Positions 261 through 9,590 of a DNA stretch of 9,590 bases are shown piece after piece. Source of the DNA: Escherichia coli (GTDB lineage: Bacteria > Pseudomonadota > Gammaproteobacteria > Enterobacterales > Enterobacteriaceae); the NCBI RefSeq assembly GCF_003334255.1, contig NZ_QOWU01000087.1; one strand, written 5' to 3'. Both the position numbers and the translations under genes were made by a program. The notes under the pieces are model-generated. The model was not told the DNA's origin, searched no databases, and saw only the letters and a program-made list of their open reading frames with translations. Position 1 is the stretch's first letter; each line of letters begins with the position of its first letter.

Positions 261-2960
261 ATGCGTAAATATCCTTTAAGTTTACTGAAGGATAAAAATA
301 TTGTGACTTTTTTTGATTTCTGGGGAAAAACCCGACGCGGCGAGAAAGACGGGGGCGACGACTATCACCTTCTTTGCTGGCATTCGCTGGATGTAGCCGC
401 GATGGGCTATTTAATGGTTAAAAGAAATTGCTTCGGGCTGGCTGATTATTTTCGTCAATTAGGGATTTCTGACAAGGAACAGGCGGCTCAATTTTTCGCC
501 TGGTTGCTGTGCTGGCACGATATTGGAAAATTTGCCCGCTCTTTTCAACAACTTTACCTGCCCCCTGAACTCAAGATTCAGGAAGGTGCCAGAAAAAATT
601 ACGAAAAAATCTCTCATTCAACGCTGGGCTACTGGTTGTGGAATCATTATTTAAGTGAATGTCAGGAGTTACTTCCTTCATCTTCGCTCTCTCCGCGCAA
701 ACTTAGGCGAGTGATAGAAATGTGGATGCCCGTGACGACAGGGCATCATGGTCGGCCCCCTGATCGTATGGATGAATTGGATAATTTTCTGCCTGAAGAC
801 AAAGCTGCAGCACGAGATTTTCTCCTTGAAATCAAACCACTGTTTCCGCTCATAGAGATCCCCGCATTCTGGGATGATGATGAGGGCATTGAACTTATAA
901 AACACCTTTCCTGGTATATCTCTGCAACCGTCGTGCTCGCAGACTGGACGGGTTCGTCAACGCGATTTTTTCCACGCGTCGCACACCCAATGGATATTAA
1001 AGGTTACTGGCAGAAAACTTTAATTCAGGCTCAAAACGCCTTAACCGTCTTTCCTCTAAAAGCAAAAGTCGCGCCTTTCAACGGAATTAATACGCTGTTT
1101 CCTTTTATTGAGAATCCGACACCGTTACAGCAAAAGGTGCTGGATCTGGATATCAGCCAGCAAGGACCGCAGTTATTTATTCTGGAAGATGTGACTGGCG
1201 CAGGTAAAACAGAAGCGGCGCTTATCCTGGCGCACAGGTTGATAGCTGCGGGGAAAGCTCAGGGGCTGTTTTTTGGTCTGCCAACAATGGCAACGGCCAA
1301 TGCCATGTACGATCGGCTGGTCAAAACCTGGCTTGCTTTCTATTCGCCAGAATCCCGCCCCAGCCTGGTGCTGGCACATAGTGCCCGCACATTAATGGAC
1401 CGCTTTAATGAATCACTCTGGTCTGGTGATTTAGTCGGGTCAGAAGAACCGGATGAACAAACGTTCAGTCAGGGATGTGCGGCCTGGTTTGCCGACAGTA
1501 ACAAGAAGGCGTTGCTGGCTGAAATTGGCGTCGGCACGCTGGATCAGGCGATGATGGCGGTGATGCCGTTCAAACATAATAATCTGCGGCTTCTGGGGCT
1601 GAGTAACAAAATCCTGCTGGCTGATGAGATCCACGCCTGTGACGCTTACATGTCGTGCATTCTTGAAGGGTTGATCGAGCGGCAGGCGCGTGGCGGAAAC
1701 AGCGTTATTTTGCTTTCTGCCACGTTATCTCAACAGCAGCGCGACAAACTCGTCGCTGCCTTTGCGCGGGGTACAGAGGGCCAGCAAGAAGCTCCGTTCC
1801 TGGAAAAGGATGATTACCCCTGGCTGACGCATGTCACGAAATCCGATGTGAACTCACACCGGGTAGCGACGCGCAAAGACGTTGAGCGTAGCGTCAGCGT
1901 GGGTTGGCTTCATAGTGAACAAGAGTGTATTGCGCGTATCGAATCGGCGGTAAGTCAGGGGAAATGCATCGCCTGGATCCGGAATTCTGTCGATGACGCT
2001 ATTAAGGTTCATCGTCAGCTGCTTGCCCGCGGCGTCATTCCTGCTTCCAGCCTTTCACTTTTTCATAGCCGCTTTGCTTTTAGCGATCGCCAGCGAATTG
2101 AAACGGAAACGCTGGCACGCTTTGGTAAATATTGTAGTTTACAGAGAGCGTCGCAAGTCATTGTTTGTACACAAGTAATTGAGCAAAGCGTGGATATTGA
2201 CCTGGACGAAATGATCTCCGACCTGGCCCCTGTTGATTTGCTGATTCAGCGAGCAGGACGATTACAGCGGCATATCCGCGATATTAATGGTCAGTTAAAG
2301 CGTGACGGAAAGGACGAGCGTTCCCCCCCTGAATTGCTGATTCTGGCTCCCGTCTGGGACGACTCTCCTGGCGACGAATGGTTTGGCAGTGCCATGCGTA
2401 ACAGTGCATTTGTCTATCCCGATCATGGGCGAATCTGGCTGACGCAGCGTGTGCTGCGTGAGCAAGGTGCTATTCAGATGCCACACGCAGCCCGGCTTCT
2501 TATTGAATCCGTCTACGGTGAGGACGTGGTAATGCCGGAAGGATTTGCCCGCAGCGAGCAGGAGCAAGTGGGCAAATATTACTGTGATCGCGCAATGGCT
2601 AAAAAGTTTGTGCTGAACTTCAGGCCCGGCTATGCCGCCAATATCAACGATTACCTCCCGGAAAAACTGTCGACACGTCTGGCTGAGGAGTCTGTTTCCC
2701 TGTGGCTGGCTACCTGTATTGACGGTGTGGTGAAGCCTTATGCCACCGGTGCTCACGCATGGGAAATGAGCGTTGTCAGAGTGCGCCGGAGCTGGTGGAA
2801 AAAACATCGGGATGAGTTTTCTTTACTGGAGGGAGAGGCGTTCAGGCTGTGGTGCATTGAACAGCGACAAGATCCGGAGATGGCAAACGTGATTTTAGTC
2901 AACGATGACGAAAGTTGCGGGTATTCGGCTACGGAAGGATTGATTGGCAAGGTTGGTTGA
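261..2960 (+). CDS. cas3: Cas3, type I HD-nuclease / SF2 helicase
   Basis: 899-aa ORF. The N-terminal HD domain shows HLLCWHSLDVA and CWHDIGK (HD motif). Helicase motifs follow: Walker A TGAGKTEAA, motif II LLADEIHACD, SAT, and motif VI QRAGRLQRH. It sits at the head of a cas operon. The start at 261 has no obvious Shine-Dalgarno, so the start codon is less certain than the stop. Confidence 0.93.
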   Translation: MRKYPLSLLKDKNIVTFFDFWGKTRRGEKDGGDDYHLLCWHSLDVAAMGYLMVKRNCFGLADYFRQLGISDKEQAAQFFAWLLCWHDIGKFARSFQQLYLPPELKIQEGARKNYEKISHSTLGYWLWNHYLSECQELLPSSSLSPRKLRRVIEMWMPVTTGHHGRPPDRMDELDNFLPEDKAAARDFLLEIKPLFPLIEIPAFWDDDEGIELIKHLSWYISATVVLADWTGSSTRFFPRVAHPMDIKGYWQKTLIQAQNALTVFPLKAKVAPFNGINTLFPFIENPTPLQQKVLDLDISQQGPQLFILEDVTGAGKTEAALILAHRLIAAGKAQGLFFGLPTMATANAMYDRLVKTWLAFYSPESRPSLVLAHSARTLMDRFNESLWSGDLVGSEEPDEQTFSQGCAAWFADSNKKALLAEIGVGTLDQAMMAVMPFKHNNLRLLGLSNKILLADEIHACDAYMSCILEGLIERQARGGNSVILLSATLSQQQRDKLVAAFARGTEGQQEAPFLEKDDYPWLTHVTKSDVNSHRVATRKDVERSVSVGWLHSEQECIARIESAVSQGKCIAWIRNSVDDAIKVHRQLLARGVIPASSLSLFHSRFAFSDRQRIETETLARFGKYCSLQRASQVIVCTQVIEQSVDIDLDEMISDLAPVDLLIQRAGRLQRHIRDINGQLKRDGKDERSPPELLILAPVWDDSPGDEWFGSAMRNSAFVYPDHGRIWLTQRVLREQGAIQMPHAARLLIESVYGEDVVMPEGFARSEQEQVGKYYCDRAMAKKFVLNFRPGYAANINDYLPEKLSTRLAEESVSLWLATCIDGVVKPYATGAHAWEMSVVRVRRSWWKKHRDEFSLLEGEAFRLWCIEQRQDPEMANVILVNDDESCGYSATEGLIGKVG

Positions 2961-3057
2961 GATGTCTGCGACAGGACTCTCTGAATAGTTGATACACCGA
3001 AAAGGATGGAAAGATGGACAACCGACCTGGGATGGTCTTTTTTACGAGAGGATGCGT

Positions 3058-4620
3058 ATGAACTCGTTTTCACTTCTGACAACCCCGTGGTTGCCCGTTC
3101 GTTTTAAAGACGGAACGACAGGCAAACTGGCGCCAGTCGATCTGGCGGATGAAAATGTTGTCGATATTTCTGCGCCGCGGGCAGATCTCCAGGGTGCGGT
3201 ATGGCAGTTTTTGCTGGGGCTACTACAAACCAGCTTCGCGCCAAAAGATCATCGTCGTTGGGATGATATCTGGGAAGACGGACTGGAAGCTGAAAAGCTA
3301 CGGGAAGCATTGCAGTCATTAGAACATGCTTTCCAGTTTGGGCCAGATTCCCCTTCATTTATGCAGGATTTCGAGGCGCTCACCGGAGATAAAGTTCCGG
3401 TCGCTTCGCTACTGCCTGAGATTCCCGGCGCTCAAACAACGAAGTTTAATAAAGACCACTTTATCAAGCGTGGTGTAACGGAATACCTGTGCCCACATTG
3501 TTCTGCGTTAGCTCTGTTCTCCCTACAGTTGAATGCGCCGTCAGGTGGCAAAGGCTACCGCACCGGTTTACGCGGCGGTGGGCCGATGACCACTCTGATT
3601 GAATTACAGGAATATCAGGGTAATCAACAAACTCCCTTGTGGCGCAAACTGTGGATCAATGTCATGCCGCAGGATGAAGCCGATTTACCGCTACCCAAAA
3701 AATTTGACGATCTGGTTTTCCCCTGGCTTGGCCCGACGCGCACCAGCGAACTGGCCGGTGCGGTGGTAACCGATGAGCAGGTCAATAAACTCCAGGCGTA
3801 CTGGGGAATGCCTCGCCGTATTCGTATTGATTTTAATACCACGACAGTCGGCAACTGCGATATTTGCGGTGAGCAGAGCGACGCGCTCCTGAGCCTGATG
3901 ACGACCAAAAATTACGGTGCGAATTATGCCATGTGGCAGCATCCCTTAACGCCTTACCGTGTACCACTTAAAGAGGGTGGCGAGTTTTACTCCGTTAAAC
4001 CACAACCGGGCGGTTTAATCTGGCGTGACTGGTTAGGCCTTATCGAAACGGGTAAATCAGAAAACAATACGGAACTTCCCGCGCTGGTGGTGAAACTCTT
4101 CAATGCCAGCAGTCTCAAGCAGGCAAAAGTGGGCCTGTGGGGATTTGGCTATGATTTCGACAACATGAAAGCGCGCTGTTGGTACGAACACCATTTCCCG
4201 CTGCTGCTCGATAAAAAAGAAGGTCAGATACCGAAGCTGCGGCTGGCTGCGCAAACAGCTTCACGGATTCTAAGTCTGTTACGGAGTGCATTGAAAGAAG
4301 CATGGTTCTCCGATCCAAAAGGTGCAAGGGGTGATTTTAGTTTTGTGGATATCGACTTCTGGAACAAAACTCAGCATCGCTTTCTGAGGTTAGTGCGCCA
4401 AATTGAAGAAGGTCAGGATGCGGATGAATTACTCAGCAAATGGAATAAGGAAATTTGGTTATTCGCACGTCAGGATTTTGACGAGCGTGTATTCACCAAT
4501 CCTTATGAGCCCGTTGATCTGGAACGCGTCATGACCGCGCGCAAGAAATATTTTACAACATCGGCGGAGAAGCAAAGTGCTAAAGCCGCCAGGGAGAAAA
4601 AGCAGGAGGCTGCTGAATGA
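3058..4620 (+). CDS. casA: Cse1/CasA, large subunit of the type I-E Cascade complex
   Basis: A large ORF immediately after cas3 and before cse2, in the conserved I-E order. I chose the ATG at 3058 (MNSFSLLTTPWLPVRF...) because GAGAGG lies 7 nt upstream as a Shine-Dalgarno. The ORF-track start at 2989 lacks one. The stop TGA at 4618-4620 overlaps the casB ATG. Confidence 0.88.
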   Translation: MNSFSLLTTPWLPVRFKDGTTGKLAPVDLADENVVDISAPRADLQGAVWQFLLGLLQTSFAPKDHRRWDDIWEDGLEAEKLREALQSLEHAFQFGPDSPSFMQDFEALTGDKVPVASLLPEIPGAQTTKFNKDHFIKRGVTEYLCPHCSALALFSLQLNAPSGGKGYRTGLRGGGPMTTLIELQEYQGNQQTPLWRKLWINVMPQDEADLPLPKKFDDLVFPWLGPTRTSELAGAVVTDEQVNKLQAYWGMPRRIRIDFNTTTVGNCDICGEQSDALLSLMTTKNYGANYAMWQHPLTPYRVPLKEGGEFYSVKPQPGGLIWRDWLGLIETGKSENNTELPALVVKLFNASSLKQAKVGLWGFGYDFDNMKARCWYEHHFPLLLDKKEGQIPKLRLAAQTASRILSLLRSALKEAWFSDPKGARGDFSFVDIDFWNKTQHRFLRLVRQIEEGQDADELLSKWNKEIWLFARQDFDERVFTNPYEPVDLERVMTARKKYFTTSAEKQSAKAAREKKQEAAE

Positions 4621-5153
4621 GTATTGTAAAAGAGGAGCACAAAGCCACGCTGCGCAAATGGCACGAGGAATTGCAGGAGAAACGTGGCGAACGTGCCAGT
4701 CTGCGGCGTAGTACGACGGTTAATGATGTTTGTCTGACGGATGGATTTCGCCTGTTTCTGAAGAACAGACAAATAAAGTGGCAGGATGAACCTGAGTGGC
4801 GTATCACCGCACTGGCGCTGATAGCCGCAGTTAGCGCCAATGTTAAAGCTATTGATGAACGGCAGCCTTTTGCCGCGCAGCTGGCGGCGGTAATGTCAAA
4901 GGGGCGTTTTACTCGTCTGTCGGCAGTAAAAACACCGGATGAATTACTGCGCCAGTTACGCCGCGCAGTCAGATTATTAAACGGTTCCGTCAATCTTGAC
5001 TCTCTGGCAGAGGGGGTCTTCCGTTGGTGCCAGGAGAGCGACGACCTGCTCAATCATCACCGCCGCCAGCAGCGGCCAACCGAATTTATCCGTATCCGCT
5101 GGGCGCTGGAATATTACCAGGCTGGCGACGCCGATAACGAACAAAATCAATAA
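4617..5153 (+). CDS. casB: Cse2/CasB, small subunit of Cascade
   Basis: 178-aa ORF in the expected position between cse1 and cas7. AGGAGG lies at 4604-4609, and the ATGA overlap with the casA stop indicates translational coupling. The assignment rests mainly on size and synteny. The sequence is not close to K-12 CasB as I recall it. Confidence 0.8.
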   Translation: MSIVKEEHKATLRKWHEELQEKRGERASLRRSTTVNDVCLTDGFRLFLKNRQIKWQDEPEWRITALALIAAVSANVKAIDERQPFAAQLAAVMSKGRFTRLSAVKTPDELLRQLRRAVRLLNGSVNLDSLAEGVFRWCQESDDLLNHHRRQQRPTEFIRIRWALEYYQAGDADNEQNQ

Positions 5154-5164
5154 AGGACTATCTC

Positions 5165-6220
5165 ATGACAACATTTATTCAGCTTCATTTGTTAACCGCT
5201 TACCCTGCTGCCAACCTTAACCGTGATGATACCGGTGCGCCAAAAACTGTGGTGCTGGGTGGAGCAACGCGTCTGCGCGTTTCCTCGCAAAGTCTGAAAC
5301 GTGCGTGGCGCACTTCTGCACTTTTTGAACAGGCACTGGCGGGCCATATTGGTATTCGCAGTGGGCGTATTGCGCGTGAGGCGGCAACTATCCTGATTGA
5401 GAAAGGAATCGAAGAGAAAAAAGCCATCGAATGGGCGGCAAAAATTGCAGATTATCTTGGGAAAGCTAAAAACGACAAAAAACCAAAAGATCCGCTCACT
5501 AACGCCGAAACTGAACAGTTAGTCCATATCAGCCCGGCAGAATTTGACGCCGTAAAAGTGCTGGCCCATCAGCTTGCAGAAGAAAAGCGCGCGCCAAAAG
5601 AGGAAGATCTCGCGTTGTTACGCAAAGACCGTATGGCGGTAGATATTGCCATGTTTGGTCGTATGCTGGCGAATAAACCCGAGTTTAATGTTGAAGCCGC
5701 CTGCCAGGTAGCGCACGCATTTGGTGTCAGTGAAACGATTGTCGAAGATGATTTTTTCACCGCCGTTGATGATTTGCGCCAGGCTTCTGAAGATGCCGGT
5801 GCCGGGCATCTTGGTGAAACCGGATTCGGTTCTGCACTGTTCTACACCTATATCTGCATTGATAAAGATCTGCTGGTCGAAAACCTTGGCGGTGACGAAG
5901 CGTTAGCTAATCAGACCATACGTGCCTTTACGGAAGCCGCACTTAAAGTCTCCCCAACCGGCAAACAGAACAGCTTTGCCAGCCGTGCCTACGCCTCCTG
6001 GGCGCTGGCAGAAAAAGGCACCGATCAACCGCGTTCTCTGGCGGCAGCTTTCTATGAACCCATTAATGGCACCCGTCAGTTAGAGGTGGCGGTGCAGCGT
6101 ATTACAACTCTTCGCGAAAATATGAATACGGTCTACGAACAGAAGACCGATTACGCAAGTTTTGACGTGATGAACAAACAGGGAAGCATGAAGGACGTGC
6201 TGGACTTTATCTGCGCGTAA
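5165..6220 (+). CDS. casC: Cas7e/CasC, Cascade backbone subunit
   Basis: 351 aa. The N-terminus (LLTAYPAANLNRDDTGAPKTVVLGGATRLRVSSQSLKRAWR) matches the conserved Cas7e N-terminal motif (..LNRDD...GG.RR.R.SSQSLKRA.R). AAAGGA lies upstream as a Shine-Dalgarno. Confidence 0.92.
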   Translation: MTTFIQLHLLTAYPAANLNRDDTGAPKTVVLGGATRLRVSSQSLKRAWRTSALFEQALAGHIGIRSGRIAREAATILIEKGIEEKKAIEWAAKIADYLGKAKNDKKPKDPLTNAETEQLVHISPAEFDAVKVLAHQLAEEKRAPKEEDLALLRKDRMAVDIAMFGRMLANKPEFNVEAACQVAHAFGVSETIVEDDFFTAVDDLRQASEDAGAGHLGETGFGSALFYTYICIDKDLLVENLGGDEALANQTIRAFTEAALKVSPTGKQNSFASRAYASWALAEKGTDQPRSLAAAFYEPINGTRQLEVAVQRITTLRENMNTVYEQKTDYASFDVMNKQGSMKDVLDFICA

Positions 6221-6230
6221 GGGGCGGCTT

Positions 6231-6977
6231 ATGAGCCAATATCTGATTTTTCAGCTTCATGGGCCGATGGCGTCCTGGGGTGTCGATGCTCCAGGTGAAG
6301 TTCGTCATACCCATGAACTTCCTTCGCGCTCAGCATTGCTGGGGCTACTGGCTGCCGGGGTAGGGATTCGGCGTGATGATACCGAACGCTTAAACGCGTT
6401 TAATCGCCACTATTCACTGGTGGTTTGCGCCAGCCGTAACCCGCGCTGGGCACGGGATTATCACACGGTCCAGATGCCAAAAGAGGTGCGTAAAGCACGT
6501 TATTTCAGCCGTCGCGAAGAGTTGAGCGACCCTGAGCTTTTGAGCGCGATTATCTCCCGGCGCGACTACTACACCGATGCCTGGTGGATGGTGGCGGTGG
6601 CAACAACCCCCGATGCGCCTTACAGCCTCGAACAGTTGCAGGACGGTTTACGCCATCCGGTTTTTCCGCTTTATCTGGGGCGAAAAAGTCATCCGCTGGC
6701 GTTACCACTTGCGCCGTTACTGCTCGAAGGCAACGCGTCTGATGTCTTACGTAACGCATACCAACAGTATCAGGATCGTTTCCGCGAACTGAAAGTCTCA
6801 CTCCCGAAACTTCAGGATGAATGCTGGTGGGAAGGGGAGCACGATGGTTTGGTCGCAAGCAAAATATTACGCCGCCGGGATGTTCCTTTAAATCGTCAGC
6901 AGTGGCTGTTTGGGGAACGCACCATCAATCAGGGGCCGTGGCTCAGCAAGGAGGAACCATGTACCTCTCAAGAATAA
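6231..6977 (+). CDS. casD: Cas5e/CasD, Cascade subunit
   Basis: 248 aa. The N-terminus (YLIFQLHGPMASWG...SALLGLLAAGVGIRRDD) closely parallels the K-12 CasD N-terminus as I recall it (YLILRLAGPMQAWG...SGLLGLLGACLGIQRDD). It sits in the correct operon position. Confidence 0.92.
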   Translation: MSQYLIFQLHGPMASWGVDAPGEVRHTHELPSRSALLGLLAAGVGIRRDDTERLNAFNRHYSLVVCASRNPRWARDYHTVQMPKEVRKARYFSRREELSDPELLSAIISRRDYYTDAWWMVAVATTPDAPYSLEQLQDGLRHPVFPLYLGRKSHPLALPLAPLLLEGNASDVLRNAYQQYQDRFRELKVSLPKLQDECWWEGEHDGLVASKILRRRDVPLNRQQWLFGERTINQGPWLSKEEPCTSQE

Positions 6978-7605
6978 CCTTACATACCGGCCAGCTTTCG
7001 CCTGCGCAGTTGCTGCATCTGGTGGATCGCGGTGAATATGTGATGCATCAGTGGTTGTGGGATCTCTTCCCTGGCGGCAAAGAAAGGCAATTTCTTTATC
7101 GTCGGGAAGAACTCCAGGGCGCGTTTCGCTTTTTTGTCCTCTCGCAGGAACGCCCGGCGGAAAGTGAAACTTTCACCATCGAATGCCGGTCATTTACGCC
7201 CGAGCTGAGTACCGGACAACAACTTTGTTTCAACCTGCGGGCGAATCCAACAATCTGTAAAGCGGGCAAGCGCCACGATCTGCTGATGGAGGCGAAACGG
7301 CAGGTGAGGGGACAGGCGGAAGGAAGTGATGTCTGGTTGCATCAACAACAGGCGGCGCTGGACTGGCTGGCAGCGCAGGGGGAAAGAAGTGGTTTTACAC
7401 TACTGGATACCTCGGTTGATGCCTACCGACAACAACAACTCCGGCGGGAAAACTCCTGGCAACTGATCCAGTTCAGTAGTGTGGATTATACGGGGATGCT
7501 TACGGTCACCGATCCTGGGTTATTTCTGCAACGTCTCAGTCAGGGGTATGGCAAAAGCCGGGCGTTCGGTTGTGGTCTGATGCTGATCAAACCTGGAGCA
7601 GAGGC

Positions 7606-7609
<4 letters not shown>
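6959..7609 (+). CDS. casE: Cas6e/CasE, pre-crRNA endoribonuclease
   Basis: I chose the internal ATG at 6959 (MYLSRITL...), which has AAGGAGG at 6948-6954. Cas6e proteins begin MYLS.., and this gives about 216 aa rather than the 262-aa track ORF. The C-terminal glycine-rich motif GYGKSRAFGCGLM is typical of Cas6e. The gene overlaps the casD 3' end by 19 bp. Confidence 0.88.
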
Positions 7610-8819
<1,210 letters not shown>

Positions 8820-8915
8820 GTTATCCGTTCTTTAAAAATAAGGAAATGTTTTAATTTAGTTGGTAGATTGTTGATGCGGAATAAATTTGTTTAAAAACAG
8901 TTATGTATGCTTAGT
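8820..8915 (+). promoter_or_regulatory. CRISPR leader, AT-rich, expected to hold the pre-crRNA promoter and integration signals
   Basis: A 96-bp AT-rich stretch between the cas2 stop and the first repeat (ttatccgttctttaaaaataaggaaatgttttaatttagttggtagattgttgatgcggaataaatttgtttaaaaacagttatgtatgcttagt). Its position and composition are typical of I-E leaders. No individual promoter or IHF site is assigned. Confidence 0.75.
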
Positions 8916-9493
8916 GTGTTCCCCGCGCCAGCGGGGATAAACCGAACATTAAATTGCCGTGCTGGATGAATCGCGGGTGTTCCCCGCGCCAGCGGGGATA
9001 AACCCTGGATCAGCTGGTTCAATCGTTTACAGCACTGGTGTTCCCCGCGCCAGCGGGGATAAACCGTCGTTCGAGGCGTTTCGCGCCTGGGCGATTATGT
9101 GTTCCCCGCGCCAGCGGGGATAAACCGTCGAAAAACTTCGTCCTGAAAAAATTCATCATGTGTTCCCCGCGCCAGCGGGGATAAACCGGCAGTAAATTAT
9201 TTGACCTCGTTGATAATCCCGTGTTCCCCGCGCCAGCGGGGATAAACCGCCGGTGCAACTGATATTGATAAACGTCGACTCGTGTTCCCCGCGCCAGCGG
9301 GGATAAACCGACACCCGACCGCTAACCGATTTCGTTACAGTAGTGTTCCCCGCGCCAGCGGGGATAAACCGACGTCTATCATTTTCAGTACAAGCTGGGT
9401 TTTGTGTTCCCCGCGCCAGCGGGGATAAACCGCCGGTGTAATCAAAGAGAAAAATCGCCTTTTTGTGTTCCCCGCGCCAGCGGGGATAAACCG
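8916..9493 (+). CRISPR. CRISPR array, 10 direct repeats of 29 bp (GTGTTCCCCGCGCCAGCGGGGATAAACCG) and 9 spacers of 32 bp
   Basis: Repeats start at 8916, 8977, 9038, 9099, 9160, 9221, 9282, 9343, 9404 and 9465, a strict 61-bp period. The repeat carries the palindromic core CCCCGCG..CGCGGGG characteristic of Enterobacteriaceae I-E repeats. Repeat 2 ends in C rather than G. The leader is on the cas2 side, so transcription is on the + strand. Confidence 0.97.
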
Positions 9494-9511
9494 AGTTAAG
9501 AGGGGGTTTTT

Positions 9512-9590
9512 CCCATAAGCGCTAACTTAAGGGTTGTGGTATTACGCCTGATATGATTTAACGTGCCGATGAATTACTCTCACGATAACT
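9512..9590. repeat. Right terminal inverted repeat, 79 bp, exact reverse complement of 1-79
   Basis: See the left copy. It begins 18 nt after the last CRISPR repeat. Confidence 0.93.

Follow-up and report, generated by a model that had tools for sequence, protein, structure and literature searches.

[quoted passage not shown] The array lies in a 9,590-nucleotide stretch of E. coli DNA, the whole of which was analyzed and is referred to here as the window. The effective PAM of spacer 2 was AGC, and a canonical AAG was found exactly one base upstream of the expected register. The initial annotation of the window had proposed that the C was copied from a base flanking the protospacer and marked either a non-canonical PAM or a slipped acquisition, and the C indeed proved to be the −1 base of the protospacer with AAG one base further upstream. 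The AAG thus stands in a register that accounts fully for the C, and not in one that would leave it unexplained.

The array follows a complete type I-E cas operon and its leader, and the full cas-E set was recovered with 8 of 8 products passing the NCBIfam type I-E cut-offs. The features upstream of the array are as follows.

261 to 8819, plus strand: complete type I-E cas operon, eight ORF products above the NCBIfam type I-E cut-offs
261 to 2960, plus strand: cas3 ORF
2989 to 4620, plus strand: cse1 ORF
4617 to 5153, plus strand: cse2 ORF
5165 to 6220, plus strand: cas7 ORF
6231 to 6977, plus strand: cas5e ORF
6821 to 7609, plus strand: cas6e ORF, true start probably near 6959
7570 to 8529, plus strand: cas1e ORF, true start probably near 7606
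8526 to 8819, plus strand: cas2e ORF
8820 to 8915, plus strand: AT-rich leader of 96 nt between cas2 and the first repeat, where new spacers enter the array

The segment from cas6e through cas2 and the leader was 99.95% identical to that of E. coli TO6, and the final 60 nt of the leader were the same as the leaders of annotated E. coli cas-adjacent (CRISPR2.1) arrays. Spacers of the window array were also found in many complete E. coli genomes, where the array sits between cas2 and iap. Because strains CFSAN061761 and H7 carry one additional spacer at the leader side, the leader end was taken as the newest end of the array.

All ten repeats begin with GTG, the repeat type called "CRISPR-A," and the adjoining cas genes are unlike the K-12 set. 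A non-K-12 variant was assigned because the window's products scored below the cut-offs of the K-12-specific models for Cas3 (NF007248) and CasA (NF007247). Judged by repeat type and by these model scores, the locus is predicted to be the non-K-12 "cas-EO / CRISPR-A" type I-E variant, for which, with leader A, the acquisition motif is AWG, that is, AAG or ATG (Diez-Villasenor 2013, PMC3737337). Like the loci described in that study, the window has the repeat GTGTTCC... (A-type in their orientation) in an array beside cas2, and its protospacer PAMs are ATG and AAG, which correspond to CWT on the other strand; here ATG was found for spacer 1 and for two other control spacers. No difference from the published variant was found, with membership judged from repeat type and model scores.

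The array comprises ten 29-nt repeats that match GWGTTCCCCGCGCCAGCGGGGATAAACCG (29 nt), with 32-nt spacers between them and a 61-nt period, at positions 8916 to 9493 downstream of the AT-rich leader. Its parts, and the sequence that follows it, are as follows.

8916 to 8944, plus strand: repeat 1, the newest repeat, ending in G, which is the −1 base of the ATG PAM of the spacer 1 protospacer
8945 to 8976, plus strand: spacer 1, the newest spacer, matching the start of a tail/baseplate gene of a P2-family phage, PAM ATG
8977 to 9005, plus strand: repeat 2, ending in C, which corresponds to position 1344 of prophage locus L030
9006 to 9037, plus strand: spacer 2, TGGATCAGCTGGTTCAATCGTTTACAGCACTG, from a capsid scaffold (gpO-family) gene of a P2-family prophage, very probably in a +1-slipped register
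9038 to 9493, plus strand: repeats 3 to 10 with spacers 3 to 9, every repeat ending in G
9494 to 9513, plus strand: first 20 nt of spacer 10 (AGTTAAGAGGGGGTTTTTCC...), interrupted by an insertion sequence
9514 to 9590, plus strand: left end of an IS421/IS186-family (IS4-like) element, starting CATAAGCGCTAACTTAAGGGTTG; the window ends inside it

Nine of the ten repeats read GTGTTCCCCGCGCCAGCGGGGATAAACCG and end in ...AACCG. Repeat 2 reads ...GATAAACCC and ends in ...AACCC, the last C being position 9005. Extraction of the repeats and spacers thus bore out the initial annotation on the C of repeat 2, the G of the other nine, and the sequence of spacer 2. By established Cas6e processing, crRNA 1 takes its 3′ hairpin from repeat 2, and crRNA 2 takes its 5′ handle, AUAAACCC, from it as well. 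Functionally, repeat 2 consists of 28 nt copied from the older repeat and a last base of phage origin.

A search of 5,426 complete E. coli genomes found spacer 2 in 45 cas-adjacent arrays, and the terminal C preceded it in every one of them (45/45). Over the stretch that was compared (21 repeat bases and the spacer), 43 of the 45 arrays were identical to the window, and the remaining two, from strains CFSAN061761 and H7, had an extra C-to-T change at repeat position 28 while keeping the C at position 29. A base-calling error at position 9005 is excluded because the same C stood in all 45 arrays, which settles a doubt that the initial annotation had raised. [quoted passage not shown] Repeat 1 ends in G although the older repeat 2 keeps its C, and the deviant base was therefore not passed to the newer repeat. 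Spacer 2 comes first in the array of strain 210221272, and the leader-adjacent repeat there ends in C.

Spacer content varied among related arrays. Spacer 1 was found in 51 E. coli arrays, 7 of which have lost spacer 2, and one array, that of strain 210221272, had spacer 2 without spacer 1. The spacers between 9038 and 9493 also occur in cas-adjacent arrays of other E. coli, and comparison with strains Res13 (L001) and TO6 (L036) showed internal deletions; the window array has several internal deletions relative to other lineages. A 31-nt spacer, CCGCGCAAATCCAGCGAGCCGCCGACGCTCA, is common to several arrays (L001 3102 to 3132), and in TO6 one repeat-spacer unit is tandemly duplicated (L036 2607 to 2728), with ACACGCCCTGCTGTATTTACTGACGCGCAGGA occurring twice.

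The protospacer of spacer 2, whose flank the initial annotation had singled out for inspection, was found in a P2-family prophage as AAG, then C, then a 32/32 match. Among complete E. coli genomes the sole match outside an array was to a P2-family prophage of strain N1420, which agreed at 31 of 32 positions within a gene annotated "GPO family capsid scaffolding protein." The flank there reads GGC AAG T followed directly by TGGATCAGTTGG..., such that AAG lies one base upstream of the normal register and the −1 base is T. N1420 differs from the window in that T at −1 and in having T rather than C at spacer position 9, and both differences are synonymous (TTG/CTG leucine codons). The exact donor was reached from N1420 by way of the 90%-identity protein cluster of the scaffold protein and the contigs that encode each of its members.

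In the prophage of E. coli GCA_054858535.1 (L030), the P2-family capsid scaffold gene reads GGC-AAG-C-TGGATCAGCTGG...CACTG, or in full ggc-AAG-C-TGGATCAGCTGGTTCAATCGTTTACAGCACTG-acaggc, which places AAG at −4 to −2. The AAG occupies L030 positions 1341 to 1343, the C position 1344, and the spacer 2 match positions 1345 to 1376. Spacer 2 alone matched at 32 of 32 positions and the C together with the spacer at 33 of 33. Spacer 2 also matched 32/32 at L028 10761 to 10792, at L011 and L012 2261 to 2292, and at L029 4378 to 4409, with AAG-C preceding it each time; the independent assembly from run ERR1622260 (L012 and L029) reads the same AAG-C-spacer sequence. The protospacer lies in frame within ...EGKLDQLVQSFTALTGE..., the site in the scaffold gene includes GGCAAGCTGGATC, and the gene carries the Pfam domain Phage_GPO_N.

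The donor genotype is a minority among sequenced prophages. The exactly matching genotype was found in two samples only (GCA_054858535.1 and ERR1622260), and 14 of the prophage loci that were fetched, N1420 among them, had T both at −1 and at spacer position 9. Across the 19 prophage loci examined, the −1 base at the protospacer was C or T in every case and G in none. The common prophage genotype differs from both spacer 1 and spacer 2, and its PAM for spacer 2 is AGT, which the literature rates as non-functional. We considered these differences as escape mutations and rejected that reading, as the mismatches (2/33 and 2/32) were not clearly above background divergence, which for the common variant was 1.4% and 5.5% in the two genes and 8.5% over the whole prophage.

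Spacer 2 matched no isolated phage genome, and its matches to plasmids were chance matches of at most 28 nt. Scans for exact and codon-degenerate protospacer patterns gave none in IMG/VR viral contigs, GTDB species-representative genomes, or JGI metagenome contigs, and a locus search of GTDB genomes seeded with the scaffold protein gave no confirmed relative. Among isolated phages, the best agreement was about 75% identity, and it extended over about 7% of the scaffold and capsid genes. Standard phage-database searches fail because the target phage is without a close isolated relative.

The targeted element (N1420; L018 and L019; NZ_CP176489.1, about 1933300 to 1966500) is a P2/HP1-like prophage of about 33 kb beside a cluster of tRNA-Gly, tRNA-Cys, and tRNA-Leu genes. 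It is rare: the 5,426 complete E. coli genomes contain one close copy and seven distant ones. E. albertii carries it too. The prophage that matches both spacers exactly (GCA_054858535.1) encodes a protein with an AcrVA2-like Pfam domain (PF26125; L028 5362 to 6303) beside its replication genes.

In E. coli type I-E adaptation the last repeat nucleotide is derived from the PAM (Swarts 2012, PMC3338789). The end of the repeat was the same as the −1 base of the protospacer in 6 of the 6 units with identified protospacers, one as C with C and five as G with G. Datsenko 2012 and Goren 2012 reportedly also deal with the PAM-derived last repeat nucleotide. The five G-ended units, which served as controls, had protospacers in this same phage family with an NNG PAM in 5/5, three ATG and two AAG. 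ATG preceded the protospacers of spacer 1, of spacer 10 of strain Res13 (L001), and of the spacer beyond the insertion sequence in TO6 (L036), the last on the opposite strand; AAG preceded those of two spacers of strain N96 that belong to its other array, with GAG-type repeats. For cas-adjacent GTG-repeat arrays, the tally in this phage family was therefore ATG three times plus spacer 2, slipped from AAG. The initial annotation had equated the last repeat base with the G of an AAG PAM. The copying rule stood in all six units, and the motif needed widening, since in this variant it is AWG, either AAG or ATG (PMC3737337). Eight related arrays contain 40 distinct repeat-spacer units between them, and in these 36 spacers stand behind a G, two behind a C (spacer 2 and its point variant), one behind an A, and one behind a T.

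The same protospacer was acquired independently, in the canonical AAG register, by strain N96. N96 carries it in the other of its type I-E arrays, between queE and ygcE and with GAG-type repeats, where the 33-nt spacer TTGGATCAGCTGG...CACTG comes after a repeat with the end ...CCG. This spacer, which begins TTGGATCAG... and ends CACTG, lies at L005 1493 to 1554 (NZ_CM169999.1) and shares its PAM-distal end with spacer 2 of the window. Because N96 took the protospacer in the canonical register, the AAG is a site really used by the adaptation machinery. The shared AAG argues that the window spacer arose from an imprecise cut at a genuinely recognized PAM and not from a random non-PAM choice.

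N96 carries other spacers of interest. An adjacent, newer spacer (L005 1461 to 1492) matches this phage family in the region of its replication genes (L028 3698, three mismatches, PAM AAG, same strand). Two more spacer-preceding repeats of the N96 array (L005 1310 to 1399) end in A and T (...CCA and ...CCT), and the last repeat of the array ends in A. The A- and T-ended repeats may mark other non-canonical or slipped acquisitions.

The steps that would give the observed sequence can be set out from the known course of E. coli type I-E adaptation. Cas1-Cas2 would capture a 33-bp prespacer from the capsid scaffold gene of the P2-family temperate phage. Adaptation duplicates only 28 nt of the repeat, and position 29 receives the PAM base next to the protospacer, which is normally the G of AAG or, in this variant, of ATG. 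If the cut fell one base downstream of the register that AAG sets, the next base, C, would take repeat position 29 and the spacer would gain one base at its PAM-distal end. The resulting crRNA, with 5′ handle AUAAACCC, would then meet its target with the off-register PAM AGC, which in the K-12 system allows intermediate interference and efficient priming. The enzymatic cause of the slip was presumably imprecise trimming of the 3′ overhang on the PAM side. By analogy with K-12, we infer the functional consequences of an AGC PAM for this cas variant.

Shifts of 1 to 2 nt away from AAG have been described (Shmakov 2014, PMC4027179), and the most frequent class of non-AAG events, at 37%, is that of +1 slips, which give AGN PAMs (bioRxiv 10.1101/2020.02.10.942821). 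A minor class of 34-bp prespacers, with AAG as PAM and a further base at the distal end, is also known (bioRxiv 10.1101/2020.02.10.942821), and slipped spacers in type I-F are reported by Jackson et al. 2019, as cited in PMC6568314. Spacer 2 resembles the published slipped spacers (PMC4027179; bioRxiv 10.1101/2020.02.10.942821) in starting one base past the AAG register, in its AGN PAM, in keeping 33 bp, and in belonging to the most frequent (+1) class. The published spacers are deep-sequencing statistics from induced K-12 cultures, whereas here one slipped spacer has become fixed in nature, and strain N96 still carries the canonical-register sibling of its protospacer as a 34-bp AAG prespacer. 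The case also resembles those of Swarts 2012 (PMC3338789), in which a deviant PAM goes with a deviant repeat end (CCT with AAT and CCA with CGA there, CCC with AGC here) and the deviation is not passed to the next new repeat. Those cases were K-12 laboratory plasmid-curing clones, whereas here the array is a wild one of a non-K-12 variant, the target is a prophage, and the deviant base has been inherited across many lineages.

An acquisition that never involved the AAG would leave the same sequence. If spacer 2 had been taken directly from an AGC-flanked protospacer by low-fidelity PAM choice during naive adaptation, its product would be indistinguishable from that of a slip, and naive adaptation in E. 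coli does take many non-AAG protospacers (63%, as quoted in PMC4027179). The AAG upstream would then be a coincidence, and the chance expectation for AAG at exactly the +1 offset is about 1/64. Against a direct choice of AGC there is also the canonical-register acquisition in N96, in which AAG was recognized at the same site, as well as the rank of +1 slips as the largest class (37%) of non-AAG acquisitions. We regard a direct AGC choice as improbable.

Still less credible is that the C arose as a G-to-C point mutation after a canonical acquisition or that it is a sequencing error, and we give this little weight. Repeat polymorphisms do occur in these arrays, such as the C-to-T change at position 28 in CFSAN061761 and H7 and GTGTTCACC and CGCGTCAGC in other repeats. 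However, with C or T at −1 in 19 of 19 prophage loci, a canonical G could never have come from the target, and a mutation would have had to strike, by chance, just the position at issue and produce just the base that the phage has there. For a sequencing error, the C would have to be wrong in 45 independent assemblies. We conclude that the capture of spacer 2 one base downstream of a recognized AAG remains by far the most probable origin of the C.

Spacer 1 came from the same phage. It matched 32/32 at L030 11513 to 11544, and also L033 and L034, and it matched the N1420 prophage at 30 of 32 positions. Its protospacer is on the same strand as that of spacer 2, 10,168 nt downstream in L030. The ATG PAM of spacer 1 is the start codon of a phage tail/baseplate gene and, because it is that start codon, should be hard for the phage to mutate. 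The ATG PAM was also considered as a sign of naive adaptation, and this was rejected, as ATG is canonical for this cas variant. The newest spacer of CFSAN061761 and H7 had no match in this phage.

One extension of the slip explanation is that spacer 2, with its AGC PAM, interfered weakly and primed the acquisition of spacer 1, with its functional ATG PAM, from the same phage; we put the chance of this a little short of even. The two spacers are adjacent, they are the two newest, and both are exact to the L030 genotype on the same strand, 10.2 kb apart. The array of strain 210221272, with spacer 2 but not spacer 1 at the leader end, is compatible with acquisition in the order 2 then 1, but that array could equally have deleted spacer 1. 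In K-12, an AGC PAM gives intermediate interference and is proficient for primed adaptation, AAGC context included, and slipped spacers have been explicitly proposed to seed priming (Musharova 2019, PMC6568314). Multiple acquisitions from the same strand are a hallmark of priming (PMC3338789), but only one pair of spacers is at hand and the same strand is expected by chance in 50% of cases. Two separate naive acquisitions, made while a common prophage was met repeatedly, would leave the same picture. Repeated encounters took place in any case, as these arrays also contain older spacers that target the phage family, one of which matches the opposite strand.

The initial annotation had also suggested that spacer 2 might interfere poorly yet still prime, and this agrees with the K-12 data and with the origin of spacer 1 from the same prophage and strand. 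The behavior reported for AGC by Musharova 2019 (PMC6568314) is that proposed for spacer 2. That study used Cascade, Cas3, and Cas1-Cas2 of K-12, whereas the window encodes another E. coli variant, known here from its sequence. Pairing at −1 is dispensable for interference (Westra 2013, PMC3764190), and for that reason the altered base of the 5′ handle alone should not matter. Tentatively, and at somewhat less than an even chance, the two leader-proximal spacers may record an "error then repair," in which a +1-slipped spacer with a weak PAM primed the acquisition of one with a canonical PAM, after which the C and the pair were inherited by dozens of lineages. If true, this would count as evidence from nature that priming in E. 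coli is seeded by slipped spacers. The CRISPR system of E. coli is often regarded as largely silent. Spacers 1 and 2 offer a concrete pair for testing slip-driven priming.

The mechanism itself is already known from Swarts 2012, Shmakov 2014, and Musharova 2019, with the AWG motif from Diez-Villasenor 2013, and no new mechanism is involved. The contribution of the case is a clear natural instance in a non-K-12 variant, for which the donor sequence is identified and a canonical-register sibling spacer is known from another strain. It confirms in a natural isolate and a less-studied variant two rules from K-12 in the laboratory, namely that the 29th repeat base is borne by the spacer and that off-by-one acquisitions occur and persist. 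A non-G repeat end is thus a reliable flag for a non-canonical or slipped acquisition, and it fixes the register in searches for protospacers and PAMs. Moreover, a P2-family prophage is identified that CRISPR arrays of E. coli have targeted repeatedly.

Repeat 10 is not the last of the array, as the window stops within an IS421/IS186-family element inserted in spacer 10. The same junction between spacer 10 and the element was found in at least eight complete E. coli genomes, in which the element carries the annotation "IS4-like element IS421 family transposase." Beyond the element, the TO6 array continues with a target duplication of 10 bp, GGGTTTTTCC, by which a spacer of 32 nt is restored, and the insertion target there is a site made up of a G run, a T run, and a C run.
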